From contig JAHBUK010000004.1 in assembly GCA_019638115.1 (NCBI GenBank), positions 224,794 to 288,793 on the forward strand: 64,000 bases of DNA. The letters are read 5' to 3'. Positions 2,191-56,839 of the stretch are shown here, in pieces. The number at the start of each line of letters is the position of its first letter. Position 1 is the first letter of the stretch. Position numbers and translations under genes: made by a program. The DNA comes from Flavobacteriales bacterium (lineage in GTDB: Bacteria; Bacteroidota; Bacteroidia; Flavobacteriales_F; PHOS-HE28). The notes under the pieces were generated by a model, which saw nothing but the letters and a program-made list of their open reading frames with translations, did not search any database and was not told the origin of the DNA.

Positions 2191-3039
2191 GTCGTTTGGG
2201 CGTGTCGGCTCGAAGACTCGCCGTCGCGCTTTCCGCTCATACTCCTCGCGTGGATTACCACGCTGCGGGGTATCCGCTCCAATCGCTCACGCGGTAAGAA
2301 TCTCGTGTTCGAATAACCAAGTCGATAAATCTTGAACATCTTTAGGCTGTGAATACCGGAATTTTCATCTTCACACGTGATAGTCCAAGACGCGTTGCCA
2401 AGTGTTTGGAGGGAATCTCCGCAACTCCACATCGCAGGTTTGTCGTAGACGATTCTTCCGAACCGCAGCATCGAGACGAAGTCAAAGAATTGTGTGTTAC
2501 CCTAGGTCACGAATACCTCGGCGGAATCGAGTATGAGAGATTTCTGAATGAACGACGTATCTCTAAGGCCGACTTCTCCTTCCTTGTTCGTGAACCCGGC
2601 TTTCCGGAATGGAATCTCGGATTCGCTCGGAACTATGCGCTCCTCAAGGCACACTCAATTGGACTTGACCGGGTCTTGTTTATGGACGATGACATTCAGG
2701 TCCCTGCAATCTCCCTCATCGATGAGTTCTTTCAGCGGGTGGGAAGTACTTCGTTCGTTGGAGCCAAAGTCGATGGCGCTGTGGACCTTTCTCTGTTGGG
2801 GCACATTGCCGCTGAGGCTGGCATGACGAACCCGGAAATGCTCTCAGGTGGCTTCCTGGCTTTTAACCCCGCAACGGTCACGGAACATTTCGTCAATGTC
2901 TACAACGAAGATTGGATCTGGCTCCTTCTCCAAGTCAATCGGCAAAACTTCACTCAGCATGGCTCGGTTATACAGGACTATACTGTAAGCTTCCCCTGTT
3001 TTCGGGCCGATCATAACTAGAGGCTCCAGGGGCATCGGG

Positions 3040-3813
3040 TTAGGGTTGGATCAGCGCTGGTGGCCGGTAGCCTAGCGACTTGTGTGGGCGGTGATGGTTA
3101 TAGTCGTTCATCCACTCATCGGCTTTCTCACGCACCTCGTCCAAGGTACGGAACACGTAGGCGCTGAGCAGTTCGCGACGCATGCTGCCATTGAGGCGTT
3201 CCACGTAGGCGTTCTGTGTGGGCTTTCCAGGCTGGATGTAGGTCAAGGTGATGCCGTTTGCGCGGCACCAGTGGTCGAGCTTTGCGCTGATGAATTCCGG
3301 GCCGTTGTCCACGCGGATCATCTTTGGCAGCGGACGCACTGCTTTGATGCGTTCCAGCACACGTATCACGCGCAGGGCGGGCAAGGAGGTATCCACCTCG
3401 ATGGCAAGCACCTCCCGGTTGTAGTCGTCGATCACATTAAGCAAGCGGTACGAGCGTCCATCCCAGAGGCTGTCATGCATGAAGTCGATGCTGTAGACCT
3501 GGTCCGGACCCTCGGGACGGAACAGGGCCTGCTTTACCCGTGCAGGCAGCCGTTTCTTGGCCCTGCGCCGGATGTTCAGGCCCAGGCTGGTGTAGACCCG
3601 GTATACCCGCTTGAAGTTCCATAGGTGGCCCATCAAGCGCATCCGATGATGGCTTTGCCATACCCCGATGGCAGGGTGTTTCTGGGTGAGCTGCTCCAAG
3701 GCCTGGATAATGGGCGTGTCATCCGGTGGTGTCTTGCGGTACTGCGCGGTGCTACGCGCCAAGCCCACGCTATTGCAGGCCTGGCGCTCGGAGATGCTGT
3801 GCTCCTGTATCAT
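3040..3813 (-). CDS. IS3-family transposase OrfB (rve integrase core, DDE)
   Basis: 257 aa with ...[34 protein letters not shown]...[11 protein letters not shown]...[23 protein letters not shown]. The upstream frame stays open for ~10 codons into the orfA 3' end. Confidence 0.85.
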
Positions 3814-3838
3814 CGCCTGAACGATCTCGCGCTTCTCG

Positions 3839-4174
3839 TCAGGCGCCCCACTTCTTTTCCACCACGCTCTTCAAGGCGTCATGGACCATGCTCAGCTCCG
3901 CATACATGCGCTTCAAGCGGCTGTTCTCCTCTTGAAGGTCCTTCAGTTGCTTGAGCTGGCTTGCGTCCAGGCCGCCATACTTCGCCTTCCACTGGTAGAA
4001 GGTCGCGTTGCTGATCTCGTGCTCTCGGCAGAGGTCGGCCACCTTCACGCCCGCTTCATGCTGCTTAAGGATGCCGACGATCTGGTGTTCGGTGAACTTG
4101 CTCTTTCTCATGGCTACTTGGTGTTGAAAGTAACCCCTGGCCGGCCAAAGTGATCCTTGGCCCCGCGGGGCCAA
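3839..4174 (-). CDS. IS3-family transposase OrfA (helix-turn-helix/leucine-zipper part)
   Basis: 111 aa: [47 protein letters not shown]...[22 protein letters not shown]. This is a classic IS3/IS911 OrfA signature. Confidence 0.85.
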
Positions 4175-4575
4175 GGATCACTTCACCTCCAGTAATGAGT
4201 GGCCGAACTTTGGGAAAGCTTACAATACCGATCCGTTCGATGGCTTCCAATCAAAGGTCCTCTTTCAGGAACACGGTGAACTTCTTGTCGACGGGCTTCT
4301 GGATGTCTATGAAACCGATTCGTATGACAGATTGAGAGATGTTGACTTTTGGAAGCGCGTGCTGGTCGAGCGAGCCAACTACCTTGAGGAGCTATTCAAC
4401 CAGTGTCTTGCTCATCAACACACCAAAGGAATCGAAATCCTTAACTACTTGGCAGAGAAAAAACCCTCGATCAGGGCCGAAGAACTTGTGCTTCAATTCA
4501 CGACATATATACATGACGTCGAAGCCTTCAGAACGCTCTTCGCATCAATGCGAGAACCACTATCCACACCAAAGT

Positions 4576-4800
4576 CTACTTGAAACGTTCATTGATGGCC
4601 TTCATGGTAGTGTACAGCATAATCTCATCGTCCTGCAAAACCACTCCATATTCCCTTTCCAGTACCCCAATTATGGCCACATGATTGAGGCTGTCCCAAC
4701 TTGCGTGAACCCCCATGCCAGACTCATCGCTGAGCGTATTCGCATCGACCTTGAGCAACTCTGCGATAATATCTCTAGGTGATCGTGGTGTCTTGGTCAT
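4576..4800 (-). CDS. stand-alone acyl/aminoacyl carrier protein (phosphopantetheine-binding)
   Basis: 74 aa. The GVHASWDSLNHVAIIGVLEREYGV stretch has the DSL serine motif of ACP/PCP/DltC-type carriers. It overlaps the upstream adenylation gene by 4 nt. Confidence 0.7.
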   Translation of the reverse strand: MTKTPRSPRDIIAELLKVDANTLSDESGMGVHASWDSLNHVAIIGVLEREYGVVLQDDEIMLYTTMKAINERFK

Positions 4801-6248
4801 GGTTGGTGCTTCTCTAAGGCGGTGTAGTCAATCTTCATATTGATGTTCCTGGGCAAAGACGGAAGCGATACGAAGGCACGAGGTTGCTTGAAGTCTTCGA
4901 GCTTCTGCTTTAGCAACTCTCTGAGGCTCGCCTCCTCAACGGGCTTGTCACTTTCGATGAAGGAATAAAGCCCATCAGAAATCTTGACCGTGGCACTTGC
5001 AAGTCCCGTATGCTTTGTAATCCAGTAGTCAATCTCAGCAGGTTCAACGCGATAACCGCGAATCTTGGTCTGGCGATCCTTCCGTCCTTGGAAATAGACA
5101 TTGTCGCCTTGCTCAGCAATGAGGTCACCGGTAACAAATGTTCGCTGCTCAATGCCGCCGATCTCCTGGGTACCGAATCCGTTGTTCTCAGGCAGGCCCA
5201 GGTATCCCTTGCCGATATGATCACCGTAGAGGATCACATCCAAAAGGCCTGACTCGTCGCTAGGTCTCGTAAGTATATTCCATCCGGGTATAGGTTTACC
5301 AATGCTTGCGGTTGTTCTACAATGGTTCTTGTAGGTTTCCACACCAAGCTCTTGCCAGGTGCAAAACAGCGTCCCCTCCGTTGGGCCGTATGTGTTGAAG
5401 ACTGTAACAGCCGGGTTTCTCTCGAATACAAAGTCAAGTTGATGCATCTTCAGAGCCTCGCCACAAAAGCTCATTAGCCTGAGGGAACTGAGATCAACAG
5501 ACTTGGTTTGGTTCCGAGTGATCATGAACTCCACGACGCTTGGGACCGAGTGCCAAATGGTAAGCCTATGCTTCTCAACCAAAGACCAAGGCACTCCTTT
5601 ATTCGCTTGAGCGTACGCAACCAACGTTGCCCCAGAACCAAGACATGTAAAGATGTCGACTATGCTCAAGTCAAAGCTCAGCAACGAAAACTGGGCCCAA
5701 AGGTCTGCCTCAGTAGCGCCATAGGTTGGTATCGACCACTCCAGAAACTTGTTCAAGCCCCGTCTGTAGATCTCCACGCCCTTGGGAGTTCCCATAGATC
5801 CAGAAGTGAATATGACATACGCACTTGCCTCTGGTTCAACTGTGACCCTGTCCACAATTGGTTCAGTCTTGGCGGACCTAAGTGTGCCGATGTATGTTGC
5901 ACGTCGACTAGAATAGTCCTCGGCCACCCTGTCTTCGCTCAATACCAATACGTCAGCCCCAAATGCCTCAATCATTTGATTCTTCCTCTCGATAGGTGCG
6001 AGTGGGTTCAGTGGACAGAACACCCCGCCGACGTATAACACGGCAATCTCCAGAGCGTATGCATCAACCCCCTGTAGCAGGTCGAAGGCAACCTTTGGCC
6101 TTGGGCCATACTTGGACAAGCCTGAGGCAAGCTCCAATACGAGGCCATGTAGCTCCGAATAGCTGACAGAGCGATCTCCTTCTATAACTGCAAGCGCAGA
6201 TGGCTTCGCCTCGACGGTCTCAATGAAATGGTCCAGGCAGTCCTTCAT
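4797..6248 (-). CDS. stand-alone AMP-dependent adenylation enzyme (ANL superfamily; DltA / amino-acid or aryl-acid adenylation type)
   Basis: 483 aa with the core motifs FTSGSMGTPKGV, YGPTEGT, GDL..., and RKDRQTKIRGYRVEPAEID. It has no condensation or thiolation domain of its own. Confidence 0.85.
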   Translation of the reverse strand: MKDCLDHFIETVEAKPSALAVIEGDRSVSYSELHGLVLELASGLSKYGPRPKVAFDLLQGVDAYALEIAVLYVGGVFCPLNPLAPIERKNQMIEAFGADVLVLSEDRVAEDYSSRRATYIGTLRSAKTEPIVDRVTVEPEASAYVIFTSGSMGTPKGVEIYRRGLNKFLEWSIPTYGATEADLWAQFSLLSFDLSIVDIFTCLGSGATLVAYAQANKGVPWSLVEKHRLTIWHSVPSVVEFMITRNQTKSVDLSSLRLMSFCGEALKMHQLDFVFERNPAVTVFNTYGPTEGTLFCTWQELGVETYKNHCRTTASIGKPIPGWNILTRPSDESGLLDVILYGDHIGKGYLGLPENNGFGTQEIGGIEQRTFVTGDLIAEQGDNVYFQGRKDRQTKIRGYRVEPAEIDYWITKHTGLASATVKISDGLYSFIESDKPVEEASLRELLKQKLEDFKQPRAFVSLPSLPRNINMKIDYTALEKHQP

Positions 6249-7411
6249 TGCTCACGCTCAATTGGAAATATCCAGTCCTCTTTGATATCGGGACACATCA
6301 CATCTTGCTCATGCACGTTTACCTCAAAGAAGCACTCGAAGGCGGCTTGTCGGACATCATCAAGATTGAACTTCCTCAACACCTTCCGAATGTTGCTTTG
6401 TGCGGAAGGATGGTCTGAGAACGCCTTTGCCGCGCCTAATACACCGAAGGTGTGAAGTCCATTGATGAGAACAACTGAACTCTTAGGATTGAAAGGATTC
6501 GGATAGCGCGCGAAGTATCCCCAATCCTTAACCGTCTTGTTACCCTCTCTCGTGGCCACGTACTTGCTTCCGCCAAAAAGCAGTTCCTCGCAATCGTCTG
6601 AGTAACTCACTCTCCCGTTCATTCTCTCCATCATAGTCTTACAAATCCTATTGCCATCTCCCCCCTCTTCACCGGGTCCGCCAATGACAACTAAGTTCCC
6701 TTCTATTGATGCGGAGAATGCATCAGCAGCGTACATGGGCGTTTCTATGCTGCGATAGTTTCGATGCATGAATGTCATCACCCACAATAGTGCGTCGCGA
6801 TCACCTAAGCTTTCAAGGAGCATCCAGTTCTCAGACTTAGGATCGGCATACTGCATTCGCTTCTCCGATTCAGAGGAAGTCACCACATGAACTAACCCCA
6901 CACCTGCAGGAAACCACAGCTTATTGAGGTATATGCTGTAGAGAGCATCGCCTTCAATCAGCTTCTTGAAGTGAGTCGCGAGTTCTTCCACAGTTGCCTC
7001 GACTAGTGCGTCCATGGTTTTGTACACTACGGGTAATCGATCCTTGATGTCTGCAGGAATTGGGAAGGTCACCATCGACGCTTCTGCCTTCATCAAGACG
7101 ACGGGTTTGTTCAGTCCATATAACAAACCGTACTCAAAGAAGATGTTTGGTTTACTCTCTGTGATATCTACCAGAGCCACGTGTGCCTTCCTTATCTGTG
7201 CTTCAATTTGCTGAGGTAGCCCCTGAAACACATCGCTGAAAGTGTATGTCGTTTCAATCTCGAAGTCTTGATAGTCCCTTCGCACCAAGCTCTCTGCTTT
7301 GGTAATGAGCAACTCCACCTTCGTTCTGAACGTGTCCAAATCATACGTCGGGTTCTTCGGCTCGAATGGGTGCGATACGAAGATGTTGATCTGTCTATAA
7401 CTTTTACTCAT
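6245..7411 (-). CDS. hypothetical two-domain protein; N-terminal ~130 aa resembles the nucleoside 2-deoxyribosyltransferase / TIR-like (SLOG-type) fold; C-terminal domain unassigned
   Basis: 388 aa. NIFVSHPF...AHVALVDITESKPNIFFEYGLLYGLNKPVVLM resembles the D...N...FE(L/Y)G...G.KPV signature of deoxyribosyltransferase-like domains. It is translationally coupled on both sides (4-nt overlaps) and low in GC. Confidence 0.5.
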   Translation of the reverse strand: MSKSYRQINIFVSHPFEPKNPTYDLDTFRTKVELLITKAESLVRRDYQDFEIETTYTFSDVFQGLPQQIEAQIRKAHVALVDITESKPNIFFEYGLLYGLNKPVVLMKAEASMVTFPIPADIKDRLPVVYKTMDALVEATVEELATHFKKLIEGDALYSIYLNKLWFPAGVGLVHVVTSSESEKRMQYADPKSENWMLLESLGDRDALLWVMTFMHRNYRSIETPMYAADAFSASIEGNLVVIGGPGEEGGDGNRICKTMMERMNGRVSYSDDCEELLFGGSKYVATREGNKTVKDWGYFARYPNPFNPKSSVVLINGLHTFGVLGAAKAFSDHPSAQSNIRKVLRKFNLDDVRQAAFECFFEVNVHEQDVMCPDIKEDWIFPIEREQ

Positions 7412-8023
7412 CTAACACCTCGTTTTGAACATCCCGCGATACTTCGCCAAAGGCTGAATCTGACCGCCTACCAATATCATTCCCTCTCCGACATCTGTGC
7501 GCACTGTCTCGCCTGCGCCAACATATGCACATGGACCAATCTTCCTTGGGCCGATTATCAGGGCATTCACTCCGACAAAGCTCCCACGATACACCACTGG
7601 GGACTCTTCTTCCGTCTCGTCCCAATCGAGAGTTGCGTTGTGATGACTATGAGCTATCTCGCCCATGTAGGTGACATTGTCTTCTATTACGGTGCGGTCC
7701 GCCACATGACCACCGATAATGCAGTGAGCGCCGATCTGAGCATCCTCGGATACGTGCTTGGCATAGAGGACGCGCGTCTTCATTCCCACCTGCGCGCCTC
7801 GACAGACTTTGGAATAGTCGTCTAGGATAACGCCGGTGCGTAGCGTTGCTCCAAGATGCACTGTGCAGAACGCGCCGATAATCACCCCATCCTCGATAAC
7901 CGTTGGCTCGTCTGACTGGTCGCCATAGCCAACGATTGAGCCATGACCTATGGTCACGTCTTTTCCAATCTTGACGTTTGGATGGACATAAATCCCAGAT
8001 CCGATCATACGGTACTCGCTCAT
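7412..8023 (-). CDS. left-handed beta-helix (hexapeptide-repeat) acyl/acetyltransferase
   Basis: 203 aa with repeated [LIV]-G-x-x-x-x hexapeptides: VKIGKDVTIGHGSIVGYG, IIGAFCTVHLGATL, IGAHCIIGGHV, YVGAGETV. Confidence 0.8.
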   Translation of the reverse strand: MSEYRMIGSGIYVHPNVKIGKDVTIGHGSIVGYGDQSDEPTVIEDGVIIGAFCTVHLGATLRTGVILDDYSKVCRGAQVGMKTRVLYAKHVSEDAQIGAHCIIGGHVADRTVIEDNVTYMGEIAHSHHNATLDWDETEEESPVVYRGSFVGVNALIIGPRKIGPCAYVGAGETVRTDVGEGMILVGGQIQPLAKYRGMFKTRC

Positions 8024-8832
8024 AGCGACTCTTCAATGATGCCCAGAGCCGTCTTGTAAATCCCGCGATGGATGAGCTTCGTCTCTGGATGGTTGAGATC
8101 TTCGTCAATCTCAATTCCAAAGCCATGCCCCACCCCTTTTATGATCTCTAGGCGTGTCTTCGGTGACTTGTGCTTCTTCGACGAAGTCAGCGGCACATCT
8201 TCGTCATCACTTCCATGAAAAATGACCACGCGCGAACCAAGATTCGACAGAGCCTGGATTCCGTTCACGTAGGGCAGTTCATTGATTAACGCACGGCCGA
8301 AACGTATCCCCGATGACTTAAGAAATCCGTGTTTGTCTAGCTGGCGGACGGCTGCCGGGGTTAAGCCCTTCTCCGTTACCAACTTGTTCCGTTCAAGGAC
8401 ATCGTTCTGGTAGTTGAGCACTGGCGCGTTGAGAATCACCTTCCTGATCTGCTCCTGCCGAGTGGTGTCCACCCAGTAAGCCGCGAGCCCCCCTCCGAAA
8501 CTGGTACCCACCAGGAAGAACCGCTTCGTACTTCGCTTGACACCTTCAGCCAGGGCGGTGTACGCAGCGGAAACGTCATTCACTATACCACTCAGCGTAA
8601 GCTCTTCAAGAGTGGTTTCGTGAACACCGTGAAAGCGATAGTCGAACCTGAAAGACGATACTCCATTTTCGGCCAGGTAGTTCGCATAGTCCGAGTGAAA
8701 GCCCAATTCATCACGCGAGGACGTAATACCATGCACAAAAAGAAGTGCCGCCTTTTCTTTGGCCGCTCTTTGCATGGTGCCTTCCAGCTTGTATCCATCG
8801 TAGCTACTGAACTTGATGGTCTCTTCGGTCAT
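8020..8832 (-). CDS. alpha/beta-fold hydrolase (serine hydrolase)
   Basis: 270 aa with an HG oxyanion motif (LLFVHGITSS), the nucleophile elbow GTSFGG, and a C-terminal GVGHGF histidine. Confidence 0.8.
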   Translation of the reverse strand: MTEETIKFSSYDGYKLEGTMQRAAKEKAALLFVHGITSSRDELGFHSDYANYLAENGVSSFRFDYRFHGVHETTLEELTLSGIVNDVSAAYTALAEGVKRSTKRFFLVGTSFGGGLAAYWVDTTRQEQIRKVILNAPVLNYQNDVLERNKLVTEKGLTPAAVRQLDKHGFLKSSGIRFGRALINELPYVNGIQALSNLGSRVVIFHGSDDEDVPLTSSKKHKSPKTRLEIIKGVGHGFGIEIDEDLNHPETKLIHRGIYKTALGIIEESL

Positions 8833-10328: not shown

Positions 10329-10766
10329 ATGGCCAGCAGATCAAGTAAACAAGCGGATGGTACACCCATCACCCTGCTCTCCGGCGGCAACCCACAAATA
10401 CCGAAAGGTCACGGCGATGCCGTGGTGCAGGCCTACATCAATGCCATGCCCGGCTGGAAGCAGGAAGTGGGTATCTGGCTGGACGAGGTGATCATGCGCA
10501 CCCTACCCGGCGTGCGGAAGATGGTGAAGTGGAACACGCCTTTCTATGGACTGGACGGGGAGACCTGGTTCCTGGGCTTCCACTGCCTGAACAAGTACGT
10601 GAAGGTGGCTTTCCTGAAGGGCGCGCACCTGAAGCCGATGCCACCGGGCACCAGCAAGCAGAAGGACCCGCGCTACCTGGACATTTACGAGAACGCCCTG
10701 CCGGATGAGGAGCAGTTCGTGAGCTGGGTGAAGCAAGCGGCGAAGCTGCCGGGGGAGAAGTTGTAG
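10329..10766 (+). CDS. DUF1801 (YdhG-like) domain protein
   Basis: 145 aa. The ...GWKQEVGIWLDEVIMRTLPGVRKMVKWNTPFYGLDGETWFLGFHCLNKYVKVAF pattern is typical of the family. Confidence 0.65.
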   Translation: MASRSSKQADGTPITLLSGGNPQIPKGHGDAVVQAYINAMPGWKQEVGIWLDEVIMRTLPGVRKMVKWNTPFYGLDGETWFLGFHCLNKYVKVAFLKGAHLKPMPPGTSKQKDPRYLDIYENALPDEEQFVSWVKQAAKLPGEKL

Positions 10767-10776
10767 GCCGGACCTT

Positions 10777-10837
10777 GCGGAGAATAGCGGATTTATTCTC
10801 CGCACCTTTTGCGGAGAATATCCGTACCTTTCTCCGC
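10777..10837 (+). terminator. two tandem GC-rich hairpins (GCGGAGAATA-loop-TATTCTCCGC, then GCGGAGA-loop-TCTCCGC), the first followed by CCTTTT; putative intrinsic terminator or operator upstream of the Fic gene
   Basis: A perfect 10-bp stem at 10777..10803 is followed by ACCTTTT. A second 7-bp stem lies at 10811..10837. Both sit between the DUF1801 gene stop (10766) and the Fic start (10854). Confidence 0.45.
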
Positions 10838-10853
10838 AGAAAGCACGACCGTC

Positions 10854-11957
10854 ATGCCCCGCTATGTCCACGAACTGCCCGACTGGCCTGCGTTCCATTG
10901 GGATGCGGAAGCCCTGGCTCCTGCGTTGGCGGCGGTGCATGAGCAGCAGGGCCGCTTGCTGGGGCGCATGACCGCTGTAGGCTTCGACCTGCGCACGGAA
11001 GCCGACTTCCAGACCATGACCACGGACGTATTGCGCACCAGCGAAATAGAGGGCGAGGTGCTGGACCCTGCACAAGTGCGTTCATCCTTGGCCAGGCGGC
11101 TGGGGCTGGATGTTTCCGGCGCTGCACATGTGGACCGCCATGTGGACGGCGTGGTGGAGATGCTGCTGGACGCCACCCGCAACTGCTACGAAAAACTCAC
11201 ACTGGAGCGGCTGTTCGGTTGGCACTCGGCGTTGTTCCCTGCTGGTAGAAGCGGAATGTTGAAGGTGCTCGTGGGCCAACTCCGCGACGATTCCACTGGT
11301 CCAATGCAGGTGGTCAGTGGACCGATGGGACGTGAGAAGGTACACTACCAGGCACCGGCTGCGAAGGGCTTGAAGAAGGATATGACGGCCTTCTTGAAAT
11401 GGGTGAATGGCAAGACAGTGATGGATCCGTTGCTCAAGGCCGGACTTGGGCACTTCTGGTTCGTGACGCTCCACCCGTTCGAGGACGGCAATGGCCGCAT
11501 GGCCCGTGCGGTAGCCGACCTGCTCTTGGCCCGTGCCGATGGAAGCCCACAGCGCTTCTACAGCATGAGCGCGCAGATCAGGAACGAGCGGAAGAAGTAC
11601 TACGACATACTGGAGCGATCACAGCGCAGCAGTTTGGACGTGACCGAATGGCTCGCGTGGTTCCTGGCTTGCCTGGGTCGTACCATGGCCGCTTCGGAAG
11701 CAATGCTCGCCGACGTGCTCAATAAGCACCGCTTCTGGCAAACCCATGCGAAGACGGTATTGAACGCACGTCAAGTGAAGGTGTTGAACAAGCTCTTCCA
11801 GGGCTTCGATGGCAACCTCAGCTCCGGCAAATACGCCAAGCTGGCCAAGACCTCGCAAGACAGTGCCGCGCGCGACCTGGCCGACCTGGTGGCGAAGAAG
11901 GTGATGAAGAAAGCCAAGGCCGGTGGTCGAAGCACGCATTACGTGTTGGTGCGCTGA
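10854..11957 (+). CDS. Fic family protein (filamentation induced by cAMP / AMPylation-type)
   Basis: Fic motif HPFEDGNGRMARAV. N-terminal region of the Fic-N/DUF4172 type. Start taken at the ATG at 10854 (MPRYVHELPDW). Confidence 0.85.
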   Translation: MPRYVHELPDWPAFHWDAEALAPALAAVHEQQGRLLGRMTAVGFDLRTEADFQTMTTDVLRTSEIEGEVLDPAQVRSSLARRLGLDVSGAAHVDRHVDGVVEMLLDATRNCYEKLTLERLFGWHSALFPAGRSGMLKVLVGQLRDDSTGPMQVVSGPMGREKVHYQAPAAKGLKKDMTAFLKWVNGKTVMDPLLKAGLGHFWFVTLHPFEDGNGRMARAVADLLLARADGSPQRFYSMSAQIRNERKKYYDILERSQRSSLDVTEWLAWFLACLGRTMAASEAMLADVLNKHRFWQTHAKTVLNARQVKVLNKLFQGFDGNLSSGKYAKLAKTSQDSAARDLADLVAKKVMKKAKAGGRSTHYVLVR

Positions 11958-13036: not shown

Positions 13037-13438
13037 ATGAACAAGCGCAACAGGATCATCTATTGGATCGCCACGGTATGGCTCACACTGGGCATGGTGG
13101 CCACTGGAATACAGCAACTCATGCACTTACCCATTGAAGAGGCCTTGGCACCACCGGGCACGCACGGTATGGCGGCACTGGGTTATCCGGCCTACCTGCT
13201 CACCATCATCGGCATCTGGAAACTGCTCGGCACGGTGGTGCTATTCCTTCCGCGCACACCACTGCTTAAGGAATGGGCCTATGTCGGCTTCTTCTTCCTG
13301 CTTTCAGGAGCGTTGTTCTCGCACATCGCCGTGGGACATGGCGCTGGCGATCTCTTTCCTGCCGGGTTCTTACTGGTGATGCTGGCGCTGTCGTGGTGGC
13401 TGCGCCCGCAGGATAAGAAGTGCGCTCAAGCCATTTAA
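13037..13438 (+). CDS. DoxX-family membrane protein
   Basis: 133 aa with four predicted TM helices. IIYWIATVWLTLGMVATGIQQL and LLGTVVLFLPRTPLLKEWAYVGFFFLLSGALFSHI are typical of DoxX. Confidence 0.65.
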   Translation: MNKRNRIIYWIATVWLTLGMVATGIQQLMHLPIEEALAPPGTHGMAALGYPAYLLTIIGIWKLLGTVVLFLPRTPLLKEWAYVGFFFLLSGALFSHIAVGHGAGDLFPAGFLLVMLALSWWLRPQDKKCAQAI

Positions 13439-13446
13439 TTCGCAGG

Positions 13447-14025
13447 ATGAACCCGAAAGTCGACTGGTTCTTCGCAAAGGACTCCAAGTGGCAGGAAGCC
13501 TTTCAACTGCTGCGTGACATCGCCTTGGACAGCGGCCTCACCGAGGAACTCAAGTGGGGCCACCCCTGCTACACGCTGAAGGGCAAGAACGTGTTCCTGA
13601 TGCACGGCTTCAAGGACTATTGCGCGTTGCTCTTCCATAAGGGCGCGTTGTTGAAGGACGATCACGGCATCCTGGTCCAGCAGACGGCCAACGTGCAAAG
13701 CGCGCGGCAGATCCGCTTCACCGGCCTGAAGCAGATCAAGGACATGGTGCCGGTGATATGCAGCATCATGCAGCAGGCCATAGCGATCGAACAAAGTGGA
13801 GCCAAAGTGCCCTTGAAGAAGACCGCGGAGTTCGAGATGCCGGAGGAATTCGCCACGGCCTTGAAGCAGATGCCCGAACTGAAGAAGGCCTTCAACGCGC
13901 TGACACCGGGACGGCAACGCGGCTATCTGTTACACTTTGCAGGTGCCAAACAGGCCAAGACACGCGAGGCACGGATCGAGAAGAACGTGGAGCGGATACT
14001 TGCTGGCAAGGGGCTCGATGACTGA
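13447..14025 (+). CDS. YdeI/OmpD-associated-like (DUF1801-related) protein
   Basis: 192 aa: FFAKDSKWQEAFQLLRDIALDSGLTEELKWGHPCYTLKGKNVFLMHGFKDYCALLF and the C-terminal ...PGRQRGYLLHFAGAKQAKTREARIEK motif. Confidence 0.6.
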   Translation: MNPKVDWFFAKDSKWQEAFQLLRDIALDSGLTEELKWGHPCYTLKGKNVFLMHGFKDYCALLFHKGALLKDDHGILVQQTANVQSARQIRFTGLKQIKDMVPVICSIMQQAIAIEQSGAKVPLKKTAEFEMPEEFATALKQMPELKKAFNALTPGRQRGYLLHFAGAKQAKTREARIEKNVERILAGKGLDD

Positions 14026-28589: not shown

Positions 28590-29981
28590 ATGAAGATCAA
28601 AGCTCCTTTCGAAGGGTACTTCCATGTTCACGAACCTGAAACAGTCCAGGTTGCTGGACGAATCGAGTTCGACGTGATGACAGGTATTCGCCTTACCACA
28701 ATTGGCTCGTTTCATAAAGAGTTCATTCGATCAGGGGGTGAACAACGGTGGAGTTGTATTCATGGCTTCTCAACTAATGGACGGAAACTAACCCTGCTTG
28801 ACTGCAGAGGTCATGAGAACAGCAGTATCCCAGGCATTCCGAAGGGTTCCTACAGCTCGAAGTGTTTACTCGCCGGGCATCAACACTACGACCCTCAAAC
28901 GCCTCAAATCAAGAGCATAGCTTTCCGGATAACATACTTCGATGAATGGCTGAACCGATCCGGGGTTTCCTACGAAGCCAGCAATGAACTTTTCGGAGCC
29001 TTCACCGCAACTCATAAACATCAAGGGGCTATTCAACTCCATTTCGGGCCTCGCTTGAATGTCAGTATCTGGCATCACACGAATACACCCATGTTCGCTG
29101 AACATGATGTGTTGCGCAAGTTCAGTGAACAGGCGTACTTCAATGTTCAGTACTCCGAGCTAAGTACCATCGATCAGGCAATGGAAGACATGTTGATGAT
29201 CAGAGACCTCTTCAGTCTCCTCATGTCCGCACCAATCGTCATCGAGGATGCCGTCGCATTCATCGACGGTGAAAAGGAAGATGATGGTCGACGATTCGAA
29301 CTCTACTTCCCCTTAGGCTATGGATACCCTACCCGAGAGTCACAGCCAAGGCATTACATGCTCTATCCCTACGACGACATCGAGTCATTCATCGGGACGA
29401 CCTTGGAAAAATGGATTGAACTATATCCATCGATAAAGCGTGGGATAGCCTTCTACCACGAATCATATTTCAGCCGATCGCGCCACGCCTTTCAAAAGTT
29501 CATCGACTACGTCTTTAGTTACGAATCAACGAACAGATCGCTACATCCTTTGGAGCGATTCCCAGAGCAGGAGTACACTGCGTTATGCGCCGACCTTCTA
29601 GAGGGATTATCACCAACTCATGGAAACTTTGTTAGAGACATCCTCAAGCACGCTAATCAAGCCTCGCTGCGGCAACGACTCAAAGGCACATTCGAGCGGA
29701 CGGGTCTGGATGAAATATTTGATAGGAAGTCCATAAAGCTTCATACCGACCGGATTGTGAATGCGAGGAACAACATAGTTCACTTTGCGGAGGTGAACAA
29801 TGAAGAGACTGTATCAGAAGAAAACGTGGTCGACTACAATACCCTGGTCCGTATGTTGATCATTGGAGATCTGCTCTTGGCTATCGGCATCCCCAAGGAG
29901 GATATTGCAACTCGGCTGAAACGAGACCCAAATTTCGGCTTCTTGCTTATTGGAAGAAAGCTGAGCACTCTCAGCATTTAG
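28590..29981 (+). CDS. low-GC orphan protein with C-terminal HEPN-type Rx4H motif; candidate abortive-infection/RNase-type defence protein
   Basis: 463 aa, GC clearly below neighbours. The C-terminal KLHTDRIVNARNNIVHFAE contains R-x4-H. No other recognisable domain. Confidence 0.5.
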   Translation: MKIKAPFEGYFHVHEPETVQVAGRIEFDVMTGIRLTTIGSFHKEFIRSGGEQRWSCIHGFSTNGRKLTLLDCRGHENSSIPGIPKGSYSSKCLLAGHQHYDPQTPQIKSIAFRITYFDEWLNRSGVSYEASNELFGAFTATHKHQGAIQLHFGPRLNVSIWHHTNTPMFAEHDVLRKFSEQAYFNVQYSELSTIDQAMEDMLMIRDLFSLLMSAPIVIEDAVAFIDGEKEDDGRRFELYFPLGYGYPTRESQPRHYMLYPYDDIESFIGTTLEKWIELYPSIKRGIAFYHESYFSRSRHAFQKFIDYVFSYESTNRSLHPLERFPEQEYTALCADLLEGLSPTHGNFVRDILKHANQASLRQRLKGTFERTGLDEIFDRKSIKLHTDRIVNARNNIVHFAEVNNEETVSEENVVDYNTLVRMLIIGDLLLAIGIPKEDIATRLKRDPNFGFLLIGRKLSTLSI

Positions 29982-30264
29982 ACCCGAGACCACGTCCAAT
30001 TGCAGCACCCAATCCACCCCGCCCCTCCCGCCCTTCAACCGCTCAACAGTTCCCGCTTCCACCATCACTCGCGTCCCCTTCATTCGCAGCATAAAAGCCA
30101 TCGTCTGCTCGCGTTACGGGCCATCCGAGCAACTGCAAGTCCGAGACGTGCCCTAACCTGCGGCAGGCTTTCGCTTCACCCACACACCGCAAAAGGAGGT
30201 CAAAGACTACAAACTGCCTCGCTTCGATCATTGTCGCGTTCGCCACTTTGCGCACCTTCGCCCC

Positions 30265-47504: not shown

Positions 47505-49214
47505 TTGATCATGCAGTCCTGCTCACATACCCGATATTCATGGCGATTCTGTTTCCTATTCGCCTCCTCTATCCATGGTGTAATTGGTTACGGACAGATC
47601 GAGTACAACAGACATCACGCTTTCTCGATATCAGAATCGACCGGTGCCTTTAATTGTGAACCGGATGGACGCGGAGGTGGGTACTATGAGGTCGTGAATT
47701 ATGGATGCATGGATCTTGCGTATGGGAATGCCTTGCACACGGTTTGTCAAAGCTCCAACTACGTCAACCCATTTCGCACACTGATCCACTATGACCAGAA
47801 CGACGCACTGGTATGGACGCTTGACAGTTTACGTGTGCATGATATGGAGCACGACGAAACAGGTGGGATCGTCTTTGTTGGCGATGCACATATTCACGCC
47901 GATCTAGACCCAGGTCCAGGTGTGACAACCGTGGCCGGTGGACTGAAGGTCATTGCAAGCTATCGAGCTGATGGGACGCTAAGGTTCGCCCATCGGCTCC
48001 CTACCGGGTCCTCCTACTTTCAACGGGTCGCGTTAGCGAAGGATGGCAGTGTAGTGGCCGTGGGCGAATTCCAGCAACCATTCGACTTGGACCCAACGAG
48101 TGAAATAGCTTGGATCGAGCCGATCTTCACCACTGAGTCCTCAACCTTTCTGGCCCGATATGATTCATTGGGCACCCTCGTAGACCATCAGGTGTTCGAC
48201 TCCAGGAATATGTCTTCAATTGAGCACGTTGTGCTATCTGATAACCATGTTTACCTGCTGTGCGGTTCCTTCAACGCAACAGGGGAACCAATGGTCGCTG
48301 CTATCCGAACACTGACTGACAGCATTGTGGTTCAGCGGAACGAGCCCTATGCATTCGTTCTACTCTGTTTTAATGTCCAACTGGATCTGGAATTCGCACA
48401 TGTCGTGGATTGTAATAGTGGCAGTGTCGGGTCGCGATTGTTCAAACTTGGCCAGGATAGGATGTTGTTATATGGCCAAGGAAGTATGCCTTATGACCTG
48501 GACCCAGGGCCTGCCACGGTAGGTACGGCTAGCGGAGGCCGTTTCATGGCAGAATATGGGCAGGAATGGGCATACCACTGGAATGGAACCTTTCCGATCG
48601 GTGTGGTCAATGTCCAAGGTGCTGTGTTGGATGGCCTTAACCGGCTGTACATCGCGGGCAACATTCAAGGCACAGCTGATATTGACCCTACGGATGGAGA
48701 GGTTCTCGGATCTACAACAACGAACAGTCTGATGTATGTTGTCAAACTCAATAGCGTCCGTTTGACCGAATGGGCAATACCCTTCGGTTCCGAGGTATAT
48801 AGTAACTTAAGGGGTATTTACTTGGATGATGAATTAGTGCTGTATTTTTCTGCAAATGGTATGATGGACGTACAGCCGGGTCCATCATCCATGTACGTTG
48901 GTTGTCCGGATCCTGGAGTAGGAGCAGTAATCGCACACTATACCGTCAATGAGTTGAGCACGTCCCTATCGGGATCTCCAATTCCGACCGACCTACGGAT
49001 ATTGCCAAATCCGGCATCGGACGTGGTGCAGATTGAAGCACCCGCTCCGTTCGACCTAACACTCTTCGATGCGAACGGGCGCCTGATCATCTCCAAGGCT
49101 TACACCGATCCGCGCTCAATTATTCAAGTTGCCGATCTAGCCGAGGGTCTCTACGTGGTCCAAGTGCGTACGGCGAACTCGGTCGTCTCTCGTACCCTTG
49201 TCATCCAACACTAG
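47505..49214 (+). CDS. lower-GC secreted protein with T9SS type A C-terminal sorting domain
   Basis: 569 aa. The C-terminus LRILPNPASDVVQIEAPAPFDLTLFDANGRLII...GLYVVQVRTANSVVSRTLVIQH is a Por sorting domain. Confidence 0.6.
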   Translation: MIMQSCSHTRYSWRFCFLFASSIHGVIGYGQIEYNRHHAFSISESTGAFNCEPDGRGGGYYEVVNYGCMDLAYGNALHTVCQSSNYVNPFRTLIHYDQNDALVWTLDSLRVHDMEHDETGGIVFVGDAHIHADLDPGPGVTTVAGGLKVIASYRADGTLRFAHRLPTGSSYFQRVALAKDGSVVAVGEFQQPFDLDPTSEIAWIEPIFTTESSTFLARYDSLGTLVDHQVFDSRNMSSIEHVVLSDNHVYLLCGSFNATGEPMVAAIRTLTDSIVVQRNEPYAFVLLCFNVQLDLEFAHVVDCNSGSVGSRLFKLGQDRMLLYGQGSMPYDLDPGPATVGTASGGRFMAEYGQEWAYHWNGTFPIGVVNVQGAVLDGLNRLYIAGNIQGTADIDPTDGEVLGSTTTNSLMYVVKLNSVRLTEWAIPFGSEVYSNLRGIYLDDELVLYFSANGMMDVQPGPSSMYVGCPDPGVGAVIAHYTVNELSTSLSGSPIPTDLRILPNPASDVVQIEAPAPFDLTLFDANGRLIISKAYTDPRSIIQVADLAEGLYVVQVRTANSVVSRTLVIQH

Positions 49215-49217
49215 GAC

Positions 49218-49312
49218 AAGCTCGAACTTGCGTAGGGCTTCCTGAGGCACGAAGGGGCCCTGCGCTTTAGGACGTGGCCGCAGGGTCCCGAAGACGGAGA
49301 CCCTTCGGAGAT
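49218..49312. repeat. REP-like palindromic repeat element (family copy 1) at a convergent gene end
   Basis: ...cttcctgaggcacgaaggggccctgcgctttaggacgtggccgcagggtcccgaagacggagacccttcggag. The GGGRCCCTGCG / CGCAGGGTCCC arms form a stem. Confidence 0.75.
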
Positions 49313-49340
49313 TATGTGATCATGAAGAAACTATAATGAC

Positions 49341-50486
49341 TCAGGTGTTTGCCCGGATGTACGCTCTGAGCTTGCCTTCCTTCCGCATCTTGAGCAACTT
49401 CTCCAAGTCTTTGTTCTTACCCAGGTCGGTCAGGTTGTTCTCGTAGAACTCCAGTACATGCTCGGTGGCATAGATGTTCGCATCCACTGGGTTGTCGTTC
49501 ATGCGCAAAACGTGTGTGGTGTAGCCTCCCAGGTAGATCATCAAGCATTCATGCTGTTCGGTGTAGGGTACGATCGCTTCCTTGATCTCAATGCTTACCA
49601 GCGGTGAGCCCATGATCCATTGCAGCAGAAATGCGCTCAAGTCTTTGCGTTTTGCAGGCTCAGCACTCACGGGCGTGCTGTAGAGCCATTCATAGGCTAG
49701 AAGCACTTCAGGCACAAGCGCGGTATAGTCATCGGCAGATCGAGGAGTGTCCTTTCCAGCACCCTCTGTTCCAAGAACCTTCTTCGCCACTTCCTGATGG
49801 ATCCTGGCTCCAAGGTCCTTCGCCTTAATGATATACGGACGGGCCTCATCATATCGATTCGCATGATAATGCACCAATCCGACCAGGTGATAGCCATCCA
49901 TCAGGTGTGCATCGCCCGAGGCCTCGTAGATCGCCAATGCCTTGAGCGCATTCTCCAACGCTGCATCCAACTGCTTCTCTTGCAGCTGCATATTAGCCAG
50001 GCCGAAGTATCCTTCAGCGTTATCCGGCAGCATCTCGATAAGCGACTCGTACATCCTTACGGCATTGACCCGGTCTCCAGTTATGCTGTAGACCAACGCC
50101 AGATTTTGGCGAGCCATTTGTCCTTGCGGGTAGATCTCCAAGGATCGTTGGTAGTTCTTTATCGCAAGGTCGTACTCACCAGCTTGCCGATGCACTTGGC
50201 CCAGGTTGTCATAAGCCTCCACGAATTGCGGATCCTCCTTGATCGCCTTGGCGTAGGACTTTTTGGCTGCAGCAAGCTCGCCGGCTCGGTGTTCGCGCAA
50301 ACCTTGACGGTAAGCCACCATGGCCTTTTCCGAAGTGCTTCCATTGTACATTTCGGTTGATGTCCCCTTCAACTGCATATCACCGGCTCCCTTGGCTTTC
50401 ACCAACTCGTTCCGGGTATCGTTCTGGGCATATGAGGACGATGCCAGCAAAACGGTGGTGGCGAGGATAAAGGCGTGAAGATCCAT
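49341..50486 (-). CDS. secreted tetratricopeptide-repeat protein
   Basis: Signal peptide MDLHAFILATTVLLASSSYAQ, then several TPR units (AYDNLGQVHRQAGEYDLAIKNYQRSLEIYP...). Confidence 0.7.
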   Translation of the reverse strand: MDLHAFILATTVLLASSSYAQNDTRNELVKAKGAGDMQLKGTSTEMYNGSTSEKAMVAYRQGLREHRAGELAAAKKSYAKAIKEDPQFVEAYDNLGQVHRQAGEYDLAIKNYQRSLEIYPQGQMARQNLALVYSITGDRVNAVRMYESLIEMLPDNAEGYFGLANMQLQEKQLDAALENALKALAIYEASGDAHLMDGYHLVGLVHYHANRYDEARPYIIKAKDLGARIHQEVAKKVLGTEGAGKDTPRSADDYTALVPEVLLAYEWLYSTPVSAEPAKRKDLSAFLLQWIMGSPLVSIEIKEAIVPYTEQHECLMIYLGGYTTHVLRMNDNPVDANIYATEHVLEFYENNLTDLGKNKDLEKLLKMRKEGKLRAYIRANT

Positions 50487-50715
50487 GCTCTGATGTGTTC
50501 GGCTGATGAAAGTAGTACATGATCCGTTCCTGTAATGAAGATCCAATGTTTCCAATTGCTCCTGATAAGTCCAATGAGCAATGAAGCTCTCAGGATAACT
50601 ACGAGCCAACCAATGCGCAGATGTTGGCAGCTTGGATCATCACCGCTGGGCATTCAGGCCGATCCGCATTACATTCACGGTCGTACAATTCCATCCACCT
50701 GTTAAATCGCGGTCC

Positions 50716-53556: not shown

Positions 53557-53644
53557 CACCCAGAGATTAGCGCACCCCACGGGATCACGGATCACGAACT
53601 GAGGAGCGTTTGTGTTGGTCCTACTCTTTGGGCCAAGTGTATGG

Positions 53645-53795
53645 AGTTCAAACCTGCGCAGAGTCTCCTGAGGTTCGAAGGGACCCTGCGCTTTAGGCCT
53701 TCAAACCTGCGCAGAGTCTCCTGAGGCACGAAGGGACCCTGCGCTTTATGCCTTGACCACAGGGGCTCGAAGACGGAGACACTGTGGAGGTATAT
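53645..53795. repeat. REP-like palindromic repeat element (family copy 2; two tandem ~57-bp units plus a partial unit)
   Basis: tcaaacctgcgcagagtctcctgaggttcgaagggaccctgcgctttaggcct is repeated with 3 substitutions, then ...gaccacaggggctcgaagacggagacactgtggagg. Confidence 0.8.
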
Positions 53796-53809
53796 GTTCC
53801 TGCCAAGGA

Positions 53810-54445
53810 CTAAGACAAACCATCCTCGTCCTCTTCCTCCTTCGGCCGGTGTGCAGCCACAAAGGCCCGTCGTTCCGCGCGCAGTGTGTCGAAGAACGCT
53901 GCTATGGCTGCTTCCGGCACCACCAGCTCAAGCGTGATGTAGCCCCACCCCGTATGCCGCATGCCGGTGGGGCAGATGCACACCTGCAGTAAGAAACGGT
54001 CATCGTCCTCCAGTGGTCGTCGGTGGTTCGGGTCGGGCAGTTCGTTGCCGTAAGCGCCGTTGGCCCGTTGCAGAAAGCCCTGCCTGAGGTCCTTCGCCAA
54101 CTCGGGCCAGGTATCATCCCATGGTATGCTGCTGCCAGGGTGGATGGCGATGCGGTAGGCGGGTGGGTAAAGCAGGATGTGGGCGCGGTGCTCCAGATCA
54201 TGCCACGCCCGGGGCATGCGGTCCTCCATAGCGGGCCGCAGCAGCGCCACCAGGTCGATCTCTTCGTTGGCCGAGTCGTCCGTCCATACGAAGCCGGGTG
54301 CGAGCAAGCCATTATGGCGGTTGCTCACCTCCTGCAACAAGGGAACGCCGTTGCAGAACAGACCCAGGGCCATGCACACGTCCTCATCCGGTTCATCGAA
54401 GTGATCGATCACCAGGGATAGGGAACCGTCTTGCAGGGTGGCCAT
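53810..54445 (-). CDS. hypothetical protein (acidic, no recognised domain)
   Basis: 211 aa, high GC, good periodicity. It ends in a poly-acidic tail EEEDEDGLS. Confidence 0.45.
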   Translation of the reverse strand: MATLQDGSLSLVIDHFDEPDEDVCMALGLFCNGVPLLQEVSNRHNGLLAPGFVWTDDSANEEIDLVALLRPAMEDRMPRAWHDLEHRAHILLYPPAYRIAIHPGSSIPWDDTWPELAKDLRQGFLQRANGAYGNELPDPNHRRPLEDDDRFLLQVCICPTGMRHTGWGYITLELVVPEAAIAAFFDTLRAERRAFVAAHRPKEEEDEDGLS

Positions 54446-54603
54446 GGGCTCAGGTGCGTATCGTGGTGGTGGCGATCATGACAGGCTGTAGGGAAGGCAT
54501 CGGCAAGGTATTGTGGGCGAGCTGGAACGCCAGAGTTCTGAGGGAACTTTCGTGCGAGCTGGGGCTTTTAATTCCAACGCCTTGCGACAGTACGGAGGGC
54601 GTT

Positions 54604-56373: not shown

Positions 56374-56445
56374 TCGTATAGTTTAATTAATTATTTATGT
56401 GGTTTGAAAAGACCGAGCCCCGGCGAAGGTTCATCACTTCAGCGA

Positions 56446-56835
56446 CTAACTGTTGAAGAGCGCCACGATCGAAATGATCAAGGACGCTGCTGCCACTAAA
56501 AGGGCAAGCTTGTCGTAACGAAAAGAGCGAAGTGTCCCTTGTTTTATGGCTTTGTCCAGGGACAGTTCTTCCTGTGCGGATACATAACCGCCTCGCTGAA
56601 TATGGGCCATGCCCGTGCTTGTGATAATATGTGGCTCTCCCATTGGATCGAAGCGGTTTCGAGCCATGTAGCCATCGTCTAAGAGTCGTTTGATGATCAG
56701 ATCGACCTCCCACTTCTCCTCTGTCGAAGCCACGGTACGGACCAGATCTCCGATCCGCATGCGTTTACTAGCTGGATCACTTTCTCGGTGCAGAAGTCCG
56801 CGCAGCACCTGGTCCAATTGCTCGTGATGGGTCAT
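56446..56835 (-). CDS. small protein with C-terminal transmembrane anchor, between the RM enzyme and the 589-aa protein
   Basis: 130 aa. A soluble N-terminal part (MTHHEQLDQVLRGLLHRESD...) is followed by the single C-terminal TM helix KLALLVAAASLIISIVALF. Starts 5 nt after the RM gene stop. Confidence 0.45.
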   Translation of the reverse strand: MTHHEQLDQVLRGLLHRESDPASKRMRIGDLVRTVASTEEKWEVDLIIKRLLDDGYMARNRFDPMGEPHIITSTGMAHIQRGGYVSAQEELSLDKAIKQGTLRSFRYDKLALLVAAASLIISIVALFNS

Positions 56836-56839
56836 CGTA

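Follow-up and report, generated by a model that had tools for sequence, protein, structure and literature searches.

In the 64,000-nucleotide stretch of contig JAHBUK010000004.1 analysed here (the window; assembly GCA_019638115.1 of a Flavobacteriales bacterium, positions 224,794 to 288,793), the minus-strand gene at 6245..7411 encodes a 388-aa protein that we consider, with moderate confidence, to be the sensor-effector subunit of a hitherto undescribed conflict system of six genes, most probably directed against phages. The protein (the target) joins an N-terminal domain resembling deoxyribosyltransferases (DRTs) and TIR domains to a C-terminal domain (C-domain) that matches no catalogued family, and its gene lies among genes for adenylation, carrier, acyl-transfer, hydrolase and glycosyl-transfer proteins. 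We favour this reading because a constant enzymatic module accompanies a constant domain that is fused to interchangeable toxic modules.

The target gene and its operon

The target gene begins with an ATG; translation of 6245-7411 on the plus strand is full of stops, and the single open reading frame (ORF) is that of the minus strand. All peptide strings quoted in an original prediction, which a model had made from the letters of the window, are found in this ORF. The target has 159 full-length homologues at 54-100% identity, all unnamed and mostly from Bacteroidota, and an exhaustive profile hidden Markov model search with the target family recovered 1552 sequence clusters at E<=1e-3. The ORF is therefore real and under selection, and not a chance reading frame.

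The target is the third of five packed, translationally coupled minus-strand genes whose starts and stops overlap or abut. Their order on the minus strand is alpha/beta hydrolase, hexapeptide acyltransferase of the left-handed beta-helix (LbH) type, target, adenylation enzyme and carrier protein, which bears out the adenylation-carrier operon described in the original prediction. Two features had escaped that prediction: a convergent sixth cassette gene, split by an IS3 element, and the low GC content of the island. The cassette block has about 50% GC against about 60% in most of the remaining window, and it is flanked by a housekeeping carboxyltransferase gene on one side and by unrelated genes on the other; the window cassette is therefore a small acquired island.

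A constant C-domain with interchangeable partners

The architectures of the family were surveyed in the 150 best representatives of the 1552 clusters. The C-domain was present in 149 of these, and a recognisable DRT/TIR-like N-terminal domain in only about 90; 36 had the C-domain without an N-terminal domain. C-terminal extensions of the C-domain came from at least 18 unrelated families, and the partners that could be named, at either end, were CHAT, EAD5, Mrr_N, TIR_2, an NAD-binding Rossmann domain, a metallophosphoesterase and a helix-turn-helix (HTH) domain.

Cassette genes were adjacent for every variant placed on a long enough contig. This holds for the C-domain alone (locus L029, and locus L034, where it occurs with TANGO2 inside a conjugative element), for the C-domain preceded by a metallophosphoesterase (L030), by an N-terminal region of unknown type (L031) or by an HTH domain (L036), for the DRT-like domain and C-domain followed by CHAT (L021, L023, L024 and L027), for a variant with TIR_2 added (L035), and for the DRT-like domain and C-domain followed by EAD5 (L033, homologue P0168). 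The C-domain is what constantly accompanies the cassette, so the operon as a whole seems to form a single system.

In L033 the EAD5-bearing homologue is directly followed by an EAD5-Trypsin_2 gene (6258-7394). EAD domains are described as adaptors for effector recruitment in conflict systems (PMC7159879), and the matched EAD5 pair implies recruitment of a protease effector. In L034 the cassette is cargo of the conjugative element: it has TraG-type and TrwC-type conjugation genes on either side, with ArdC and RadC nearby. The C-domain-only clade has a TANGO2-family gene that overlaps the beginning of the adenylation gene (L031 3561-4277, L034 3297-4064).

Conservation of the cassette across phyla

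The six proteins of the cassette were searched by tblastn against 28 loci. All six genes occur together in 17 distinct loci of Bacteroidota and Ignavibacteria; the exceptions are L019 (from the cultured Roseivirga echinicomitans KMM 6058), which has no detectable hydrolase, and L020, whose contig is truncated. More distant copies, at 29-35% identity, occur in Binatia, Bryobacterales and Acidobacteriaceae (Acidobacteriota) and Pirellulaceae (Planctomycetota). In these divergent phyla the gene order is rearranged to adenylation enzyme, carrier, glycosyltransferase, hydrolase, LbH acyltransferase and target; the glycosyltransferase was picked up by tblastn in L021 and L024 only. The cultured Azospirillum cavernae K2W22B-5 (L022) has an aminotransferase and a GT1 enzyme in place of the GT-A glycosyltransferase. 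The range of the cassette thus extends over Bacteroidota, Ignavibacteria, Acidobacteriota, Binatia, Planctomycetota and Proteobacteria, and because it is kept through rearrangement across phyla we regard it as a functional unit.

Two further genes were seen at the CHAT-bearing loci. A 398-aa gene without a Pfam family overlaps the stop of the DRT-C-domain-CHAT gene (L021 9761-10957, L024 9752-10948, L027 9845-11041), and this conserved gene is possibly a seventh component of the CHAT-type cassette. Directly upstream of the cassette in L021 (2350-3594) and L024 (2341-3585) lies a gene matching the M78 peptidase family at 21.9 bits against a cut-off of 22; its product could be a regulator of the DNA-damage type.

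The N-terminal DRT/TIR-like domain

The N-terminal domain (residues ~1-155; 6947..7411, minus strand) has the fold shared by nucleoside 2-deoxyribosyltransferases (NDTs), DNPH1 and TIR domains, as indicated by Foldseek, profile and PADLOC matches. The AlphaFold2 (AF2) model of the full-length target, built on 41 homologues, has a predicted local distance difference test score (pLDDT) of 84 and a predicted template modelling score (pTM) of 0.76. Its best Foldseek matches in the PDB are NDT (9emx/8qc0, E~7e-4, probability 1.00), BcmB (4jen) and DNPH1 (8os9/8rpt); the scores are modest (target-normalised TM 0.5-0.7). The TIR domains of plant RPS4 and of SPARTA are also among the matches.

At the level of sequence profiles, a close-family profile matched nothing among PDB sequences, and DNPH1 was reached only by a more diverse profile (41 relatives at 21-41% identity), which matches Rcl/DNPH1 at E=1.5e-4. 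This profile matches TIR structures more weakly (Cap12 7un8, E=0.015; PycTIR 8jsj, E=0.48), and its matches to NDTs are also weak. Pfam PF05014 (Nuc_deoxyrib_tr) aligns to residues 70-113 with 15.6 bits against a gathering cut-off of 28.8 (E=0.018), and similarly weak matches occur in 7 of 41 close homologues. PF10137 (CAP12-PCTIR_TIR) is matched at E=0.04-0.005 by a few homologues. The only PADLOC match of the target is to a generic TIR-effector model, at E=6.3e-6 over residues 67-149. None of the PADLOC, PF10137, Cap12 and PycTIR matches reaches a curated TIR cut-off.

Nothing in the N-terminal half is more conserved than the D...N...FE.G...G.KPV pattern on which the original prediction had based its DRT/TIR-like assignment: N89, E93 and G95 are the sole invariant columns of this half among the 41 homologues at 21-41% identity, and an N-x-x-x-E-x-G-like motif is kept in 63 of 91 representatives that bear the domain. 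Conservation of the glutamate in the FEYG motif, which the prediction had proposed to check, is complete in this alignment. The codon of Glu93 (7133..7135, minus strand; codon checked) lies in the NIFFEYG motif, and the residue is invariant in alignments A1 and A3. In the diverse-profile alignment it stands opposite the Glu of the Rcl YELG motif, which we take to be the catalytic nucleophile Glu93 of rat Rcl, and Glu93 of the target is accordingly the predicted nucleophile. By our own counting on the printed alignment, D69 of Rcl falls opposite I69 of the target, with E70 adjacent, and there is no clear equivalent of the second-shell Tyr/Asp of NDT and Rcl. The DRT/TIR-like identity of the domain is supported at the fold, profile and active-site levels, although its scores lie below the curated cut-off, and we predict it to be an N-glycosidase effector.

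The C-domain

The C-domain (residues ~160-388, ~225 aa; 6248..6934, minus strand) is Rossmannoid, with a long beta-hairpin insert, as judged from its AF2 model. Modelled alone it reaches pLDDT 86 and pTM 0.87. The view of the original prediction that the C-terminal half is Rossmann-like and belongs to no assigned family holds: Pfam, NCBIfam and PADLOC contain no family that matches it, the PDB contains no sequence relative by either the close or the diverse profile and no solved structural relative, and the viral models of BFVD gave nothing. Foldseek against the PDB returned weak matches only (E>=1.7e-3), namely flavodoxin-like domains of BcsB, a Methanococcus S-layer anchoring domain and GH115/GH67 enzymes. 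That every one of them is a carbohydrate-related protein is a hint and no more. A G-I-H-T-x-G motif raised the possibility of a macro domain; no macro domain is among the fold matches.

The alignment of 41 relatives shows conservation of D204, D206, GGP244-246, N254, D296, G318-x-H-T-x-G-x-x-G and N340. Glycine-rich loops together with conserved polar residues are typical of a ligand pocket or an active site. From the constancy of the domain and this conserved glycine-rich, polar pocket we infer that the C-domain is a ligand sensor.

The cassette enzymes

The adenylation enzyme (4797..6248, minus strand, 483 aa) is a stand-alone enzyme of the nonribosomal peptide synthetase (NRPS) type, matching AMP-binding at 4e-52 and the AA-adenyl-dom model TIGR01733 at 5e-76, the latter with a score below the subfamily cut-off; its best PDB match is the adenylation domain of LgrA (2e-82), and against DltA models it stays far under the equivalog cut-offs. 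It keeps the equivalents of Asp235 and Lys517, and its FDLS, NTYGPTE and K motifs give the specificity positions DLVHSCTLFK, assigned through the motif registers of PheA and not through structural alignment. The pocket signature is near-constant across phyla (DLVHSCTLFK, DLMQSCTGFK, DLAHSCTIFK), which indicates a single alpha-amino-acid substrate.

Two adenylation genes outside the window deviate. The enzyme beside the metallophosphoesterase variant (L030 3730-5289) has no Asp235 equivalent, the signature IYSAMGMPRK and an AMP-binding_C domain, and may activate a non-amino acid. The adenylation gene of L001 (~11160-11400; a Hanamia metagenome-assembled genome, on the contig that also contains L009) carries a frameshift near codon 78, which reflects either a real pseudogene or a long-read assembly error.

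The carrier protein (4576..4800, minus strand, 74 aa) has a WDS motif whose Ser37 (codon 4690-4692, checked) is the predicted phosphopantetheinylation site; the W-D/E-S37 motif is conserved across 24 loci, and the homologue in L022 matches Pfam PP-binding at 9e-8. The LbH acyltransferase (7412..8023, minus strand, 203 aa; Pfam Hexapep) has as its nearest solved relatives the C-terminal domain of GlmU, WlbB-type acetyltransferases and LpxD, and its conserved H125 is a candidate catalytic histidine. The alpha/beta hydrolase (8020..8832, minus strand, 270 aa) matches Pfam Hydrolase_4/Abhydrolase_1, its PDB relatives are esterases, and its Ser111/Asp210/His236 triad is conserved. No condensation domain was found in any locus examined, and the only candidate off-loaders are the LbH acyltransferase and the hydrolase. 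All six proteins appear to be soluble, and transmembrane segments and signal peptides are absent from every one of them.

The sixth gene and its interruption by an IS3 element

Relatives carry the same five genes together with a gene of ~320 aa, either upstream or convergent downstream. The window ORF at 2349-3020 is 48% identical to this sixth gene in L001 (322 aa) and is truncated. The 5' part of the sixth gene (2349..2983, plus strand), with DDS, DDD and YNEDW motifs, is separated from its displaced 3' part (4225..4583, plus strand) by an IS3-family element at 2984..4224 on the minus strand. The element contains orfA (3839-4174) and orfB (3040-3813), matches rve, rve_3 and HTH_21, and ends in imperfect terminal inverted repeats of 25 nt with a 4-bp ATAC target duplication. 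When 2984-4224 and one copy of ATAC are excised in silico, an ORF of 329 aa is recovered that, along its entire length, shows 43% identity to the L001 glycosyltransferase. The insertion seems to be recent, given the clean duplication and the restorable ORF, and because the gene is split, the window copy of the cassette is probably inactive.

By its motifs the sixth gene is a divergent GT-A (GT2-like) glycosyltransferase; its similarity to GT2, GT8 and TAGT is marginal, as is its only PDB match, to a GT2 enzyme (DPMS). Inside the insertion sequence lies a perfect palindrome of 18+18 nt (AAGTGATCCTTGGCCCCG/CGGGGCCAAGGATCACTT; 4148-4183) that overlaps the 5' end of orfA as listed, with its TTG start, and possibly forms a hairpin with a regulatory role or for binding of the transposase.

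Genomic neighbourhood

For 23 cassette loci, the nearest flanking proteins (121 in all) were compared with Pfam and PADLOC. No Pfam family recurs more than twice among them and no PADLOC model more than three times, and the survey found no transporter, resistance gene or regulator conserved with the cassette. PADLOC matches in the flanks include type IIG restriction-modification, Mokosh MkoA/C, AbiGi, Old, AriA, GajA, DrmMI, PD-Lambda-2, PDC-S53, PDC-S68, PDC-S69, SLATT and capP-like regulators (capP models in 3 of the 121 proteins). ThsB-TIR with SLATT, MmeI, a FokI-like protein, SocA, integrases and transposases also occur nearby. Variable flanks with many defence models fit a mobile, self-contained unit that resides in defence islands. 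The search of homologues and their surroundings, which the original prediction had suggested, finds the same cassette recurring across phyla, often beside known defence genes.

A possible mechanism

Judging from what is known of the enzyme families, the chemistry of the cassette may be pictured as follows. The adenylation enzyme would adenylate an alpha-amino acid and load it as a thioester on the phosphopantetheine arm of the carrier protein. The LbH acyltransferase would move the aminoacyl group from the carrier to a sugar or nucleotide-sugar, a step for which LpxA and LpxD, LbH enzymes that use acyl-carrier-protein donors, provide a precedent. The GT-A glycosyltransferase would build or transfer the sugar part, and the hydrolase would edit or turn over the product. 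Binding of the pathway product or an intermediate by the C-domain would switch on the fused effector, which in the target would be an N-glycosidase that destroys NAD+ or (deoxy)nucleotides and so stops growth of the infected cell. TIR-like NADase effectors act in Cap12 and Pycsar defence. An NDT-like effector is established in defence by retron-Ec86 (Eco1) (PMC13276650).

One may speculate further that this thiotemplate pathway makes a non-nucleotide second messenger, such as an aminoacylated sugar or sugar-nucleotide, upon infection, and that the C-domain reads this signal and fires the interchangeable effectors. We advance this messenger model tentatively, as a possibility that is less likely than not.

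Several points weigh against a conflict system with the target as its sensor-effector subunit. All of the evidence for it is computational. The C-domain could alternatively act as a sixth enzyme or itself be a substrate that is modified, the N-terminal domain lies under Pfam gathering thresholds, and the Azospirillum variant looks like ordinary sugar biosynthesis. Two loci with a C-domain-CHAT gene (L025 and L026) have no cassette within 8 kb, one of them being riddled with group II intron genes. In PADLOC-DB v2.0.0 the adenylation enzyme, the LbH acyltransferase and the hydrolase have no match (the carrier and the glycosyltransferase were not scanned). Searches of plasmid, phage and IMG/VR collections gave no relatives and hence no direct link to phage, and the signal from defence neighbours is qualitative and comes without a background rate.

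Alternative explanations

An explanation that we find unlikely, and yet the strongest competitor, is a small biosynthetic cluster that makes a glyco- or nucleoside natural product bearing an aminoacyl group. In it the DRT-like domain would provide a free base or sugar phosphate in the manner of BlsM, MilB and BcmB (CMP N-glycosidases of the NDT family). The glycosyltransferase would attach this to a sugar, the adenylation enzyme, carrier and LbH acyltransferase would add an amino acid, and the hydrolase would release or deprotect the product. Synthesis of cytosyl-nucleoside antibiotics is indeed established to begin with an NDT-like enzyme and a glycosyltransferase, the structural matches include BcmB (4jen), every member of the cassette is of a classical biosynthetic type, and an aminotransferase and a GT1 enzyme are additional members of the Azospirillum variant. 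However, the DRT-like domain that would perform the first step is dispensable, being absent or replaced by a metallophosphoesterase, an HTH domain or an unknown region, and the modules fused to the C-domain (CHAT, TIR_2, Mrr_N and EAD5, the last with its EAD5-trypsin gene) are not tailoring enzymes. Nor is any transporter, resistance gene or regulator conserved beside the cassette, and the flanks differ between loci and abound in genes for defence and mobile elements. Replacement or supplementation of the DRT-like domain elsewhere by CHAT, TIR, metallophosphoesterase, HTH and EAD5/trypsin modules likewise disfavours the nucleoside-modifying biosynthetic step that was one of two proposals in the original prediction. 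Of the other, a defence-type effector co-opted into the island, we retain the effector and drop the co-option, the C-domain being the constant partner of the cassette.

Only slightly less probable is a system in which the cassette either marks the C-domain protein itself covalently, by aminoacylating or glycosylating it, with the hydrolase as eraser of the mark, or acts as a metabolic antitoxin, continuously making a short-lived product that holds the effector off until a phage shuts off its synthesis and so releases the toxin. Such an arrangement shares the frame of a conflict system with the reading that we prefer and differs from it only in the sign and nature of the coupling. It has precedents in toxin-antitoxin systems and in CBASS Cap2/Cap3, and is consistent with the co-occurrence of a synthetic acyltransferase and a hydrolase in nearly every cassette and with the strong conservation of several Cys and polar residues of the C-domain; direct evidence for protein modification is lacking. 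In the window the glycosyltransferase is knocked out by the insertion and the effector gene is intact, a state more easily tolerated if the product activates the effector, which weakly favours an activating over a restraining product.

Aminoacylation of an envelope glycopolymer in the manner of Dlt, for masking of phage receptors or resistance to cationic peptides and with the target as an accessory enzyme, is very improbable. The adenylation enzyme does score against DltA models, the small carrier follows it as DltC follows DltA, and a glycosyltransferase and acyl-transfer enzymes are present, but the score is far below the DltA equivalog cut-offs, the cassette has no DltB/MBOAT, DltD or membrane protein, its six proteins being free of transmembrane segments and signal peptides, and the fused CHAT, TIR and EAD5 modules have no envelope role. 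We give even less credence to the SLOG-type label of the original prediction, by which the N-terminal domain would be a SLOG/LOG nucleotide-binding sensor and not an enzyme. It would draw only on the general Rossmannoid topology and on glycine-rich loops, which lie in the C-terminal and not the N-terminal half; Foldseek matched neither domain to LOG, DprA or the SLOG domain of ThsA, no SLOG family was found in Pfam, NCBIfam or PADLOC, and the N-terminal domain aligns to DNPH1 and NDT with the catalytic Glu kept.

Comparison with known systems

DNPH1/Rcl and the NDTs (PF05014; BcmB, MilB, BlsM) have the same fold as the N-terminal domain, with the D/E-x-S/T...N-x-x-x-E-x-G...G-K-P segment aligned and the catalytic Glu matched; unlike the target, they are stand-alone proteins with metabolic or antibiotic roles and are not known to be fused to a 225-aa domain of this kind. 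The retron-Ec86 effector, Cap12 of the cyclic-oligonucleotide-based antiphage signalling system (CBASS) and PycTIR of Pycsar likewise place a DRT or TIR effector domain on a system-specific regulatory part. However, the cassette has no reverse transcriptase or msDNA, CD-NTase or cyclase, its partners being thiotemplate, glycosyl-transfer and acyl-transfer enzymes, and at the sensitivity reached the C-domain is unrelated to SAVED, cyclic-nucleotide-binding or other known sensors. A constant enzymatic module with a constant domain and alternative toxic modules is also the signature of CBASS, Pycsar, Thoeris and type III CRISPR. The module here comprises five enzymes around an adenylation enzyme and a carrier in place of a cyclase or TIR protein, and the existence of a signal is our inference.

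Stand-alone adenylation domains followed by a carrier of about 75 aa with a conserved Ser are shared with DltA/DltC and NRPS loading pairs, whereas the cassette lacks a condensation domain, MBOAT or DltD. The LbH gene stands beside a carrier in the cassette, and comparison with LpxA and LpxD makes transfer from a thioester donor plausible.

The effector-associated-domain (EAD)-coupled, NTP-dependent conflict systems share with the cassette the EAD5 pairing seen in L033 as well as CHAT and TIR modules, but their STAND, MoxR-vWA or GTPase core is absent from it, and the window protein has no EAD and ends after the C-domain (Kaur, Burroughs, Iyer and Aravind, eLife 2020; PMC7159879). Adenylation, carrier proteins and DRT are not mentioned in that article (PMC7159879). 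Keyword searches of open-access full texts and preprints, including term checks in defence reviews of 2026, revealed no defence system with adenylation or carrier-protein components. The C-domain and the six-gene cassette, both absent from Pfam and NCBIfam, appear to be undescribed; the kind of effector formed by the N-terminal domain and modular sensor-effector systems are known.

The known bacterial immune pathways in which sensing and killing are separate work through messengers derived from nucleotides, among them cyclic oligonucleotides, cyclic nucleotide monophosphates, ADP-ribose isomers and dITP. If the proposed reading is right, coupling of thiotemplate and glycosyl-transfer chemistry to swappable death effectors would represent a chemically different immune logic, and the C-domain would be a new ligand-binding or regulatory domain family. 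The model is testable, as its predicted catalytic residues are all identified (E93, Ser37 of the carrier and the hydrolase triad). Even if the immune interpretation is wrong, the strict linkage of the C-domain to the cassette in six phyla marks out a conserved biochemical pathway that is as yet uncharacterised. The finding matters less for the genome studied here, whose local copy has a disrupted glycosyltransferase.

Other features of the window

About 95 nt 3' of the stop of the carrier gene, a hairpin followed by a T-run (4464..4483, minus strand) resembles a terminator by consensus match only. A scan for sigma-70 promoters is uninformative in Bacteroidota. A DUF4172-Fic/DOC protein is encoded some 2 kb away from the cassette (10809-11957, plus strand), and two DUF1801 proteins are encoded at 10329-10766 and 13420-14025. 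Other stretches of low GC content, at 29001-30000 and 48001-57000 (0.47-0.55 against ~0.60), may be further acquired islands.

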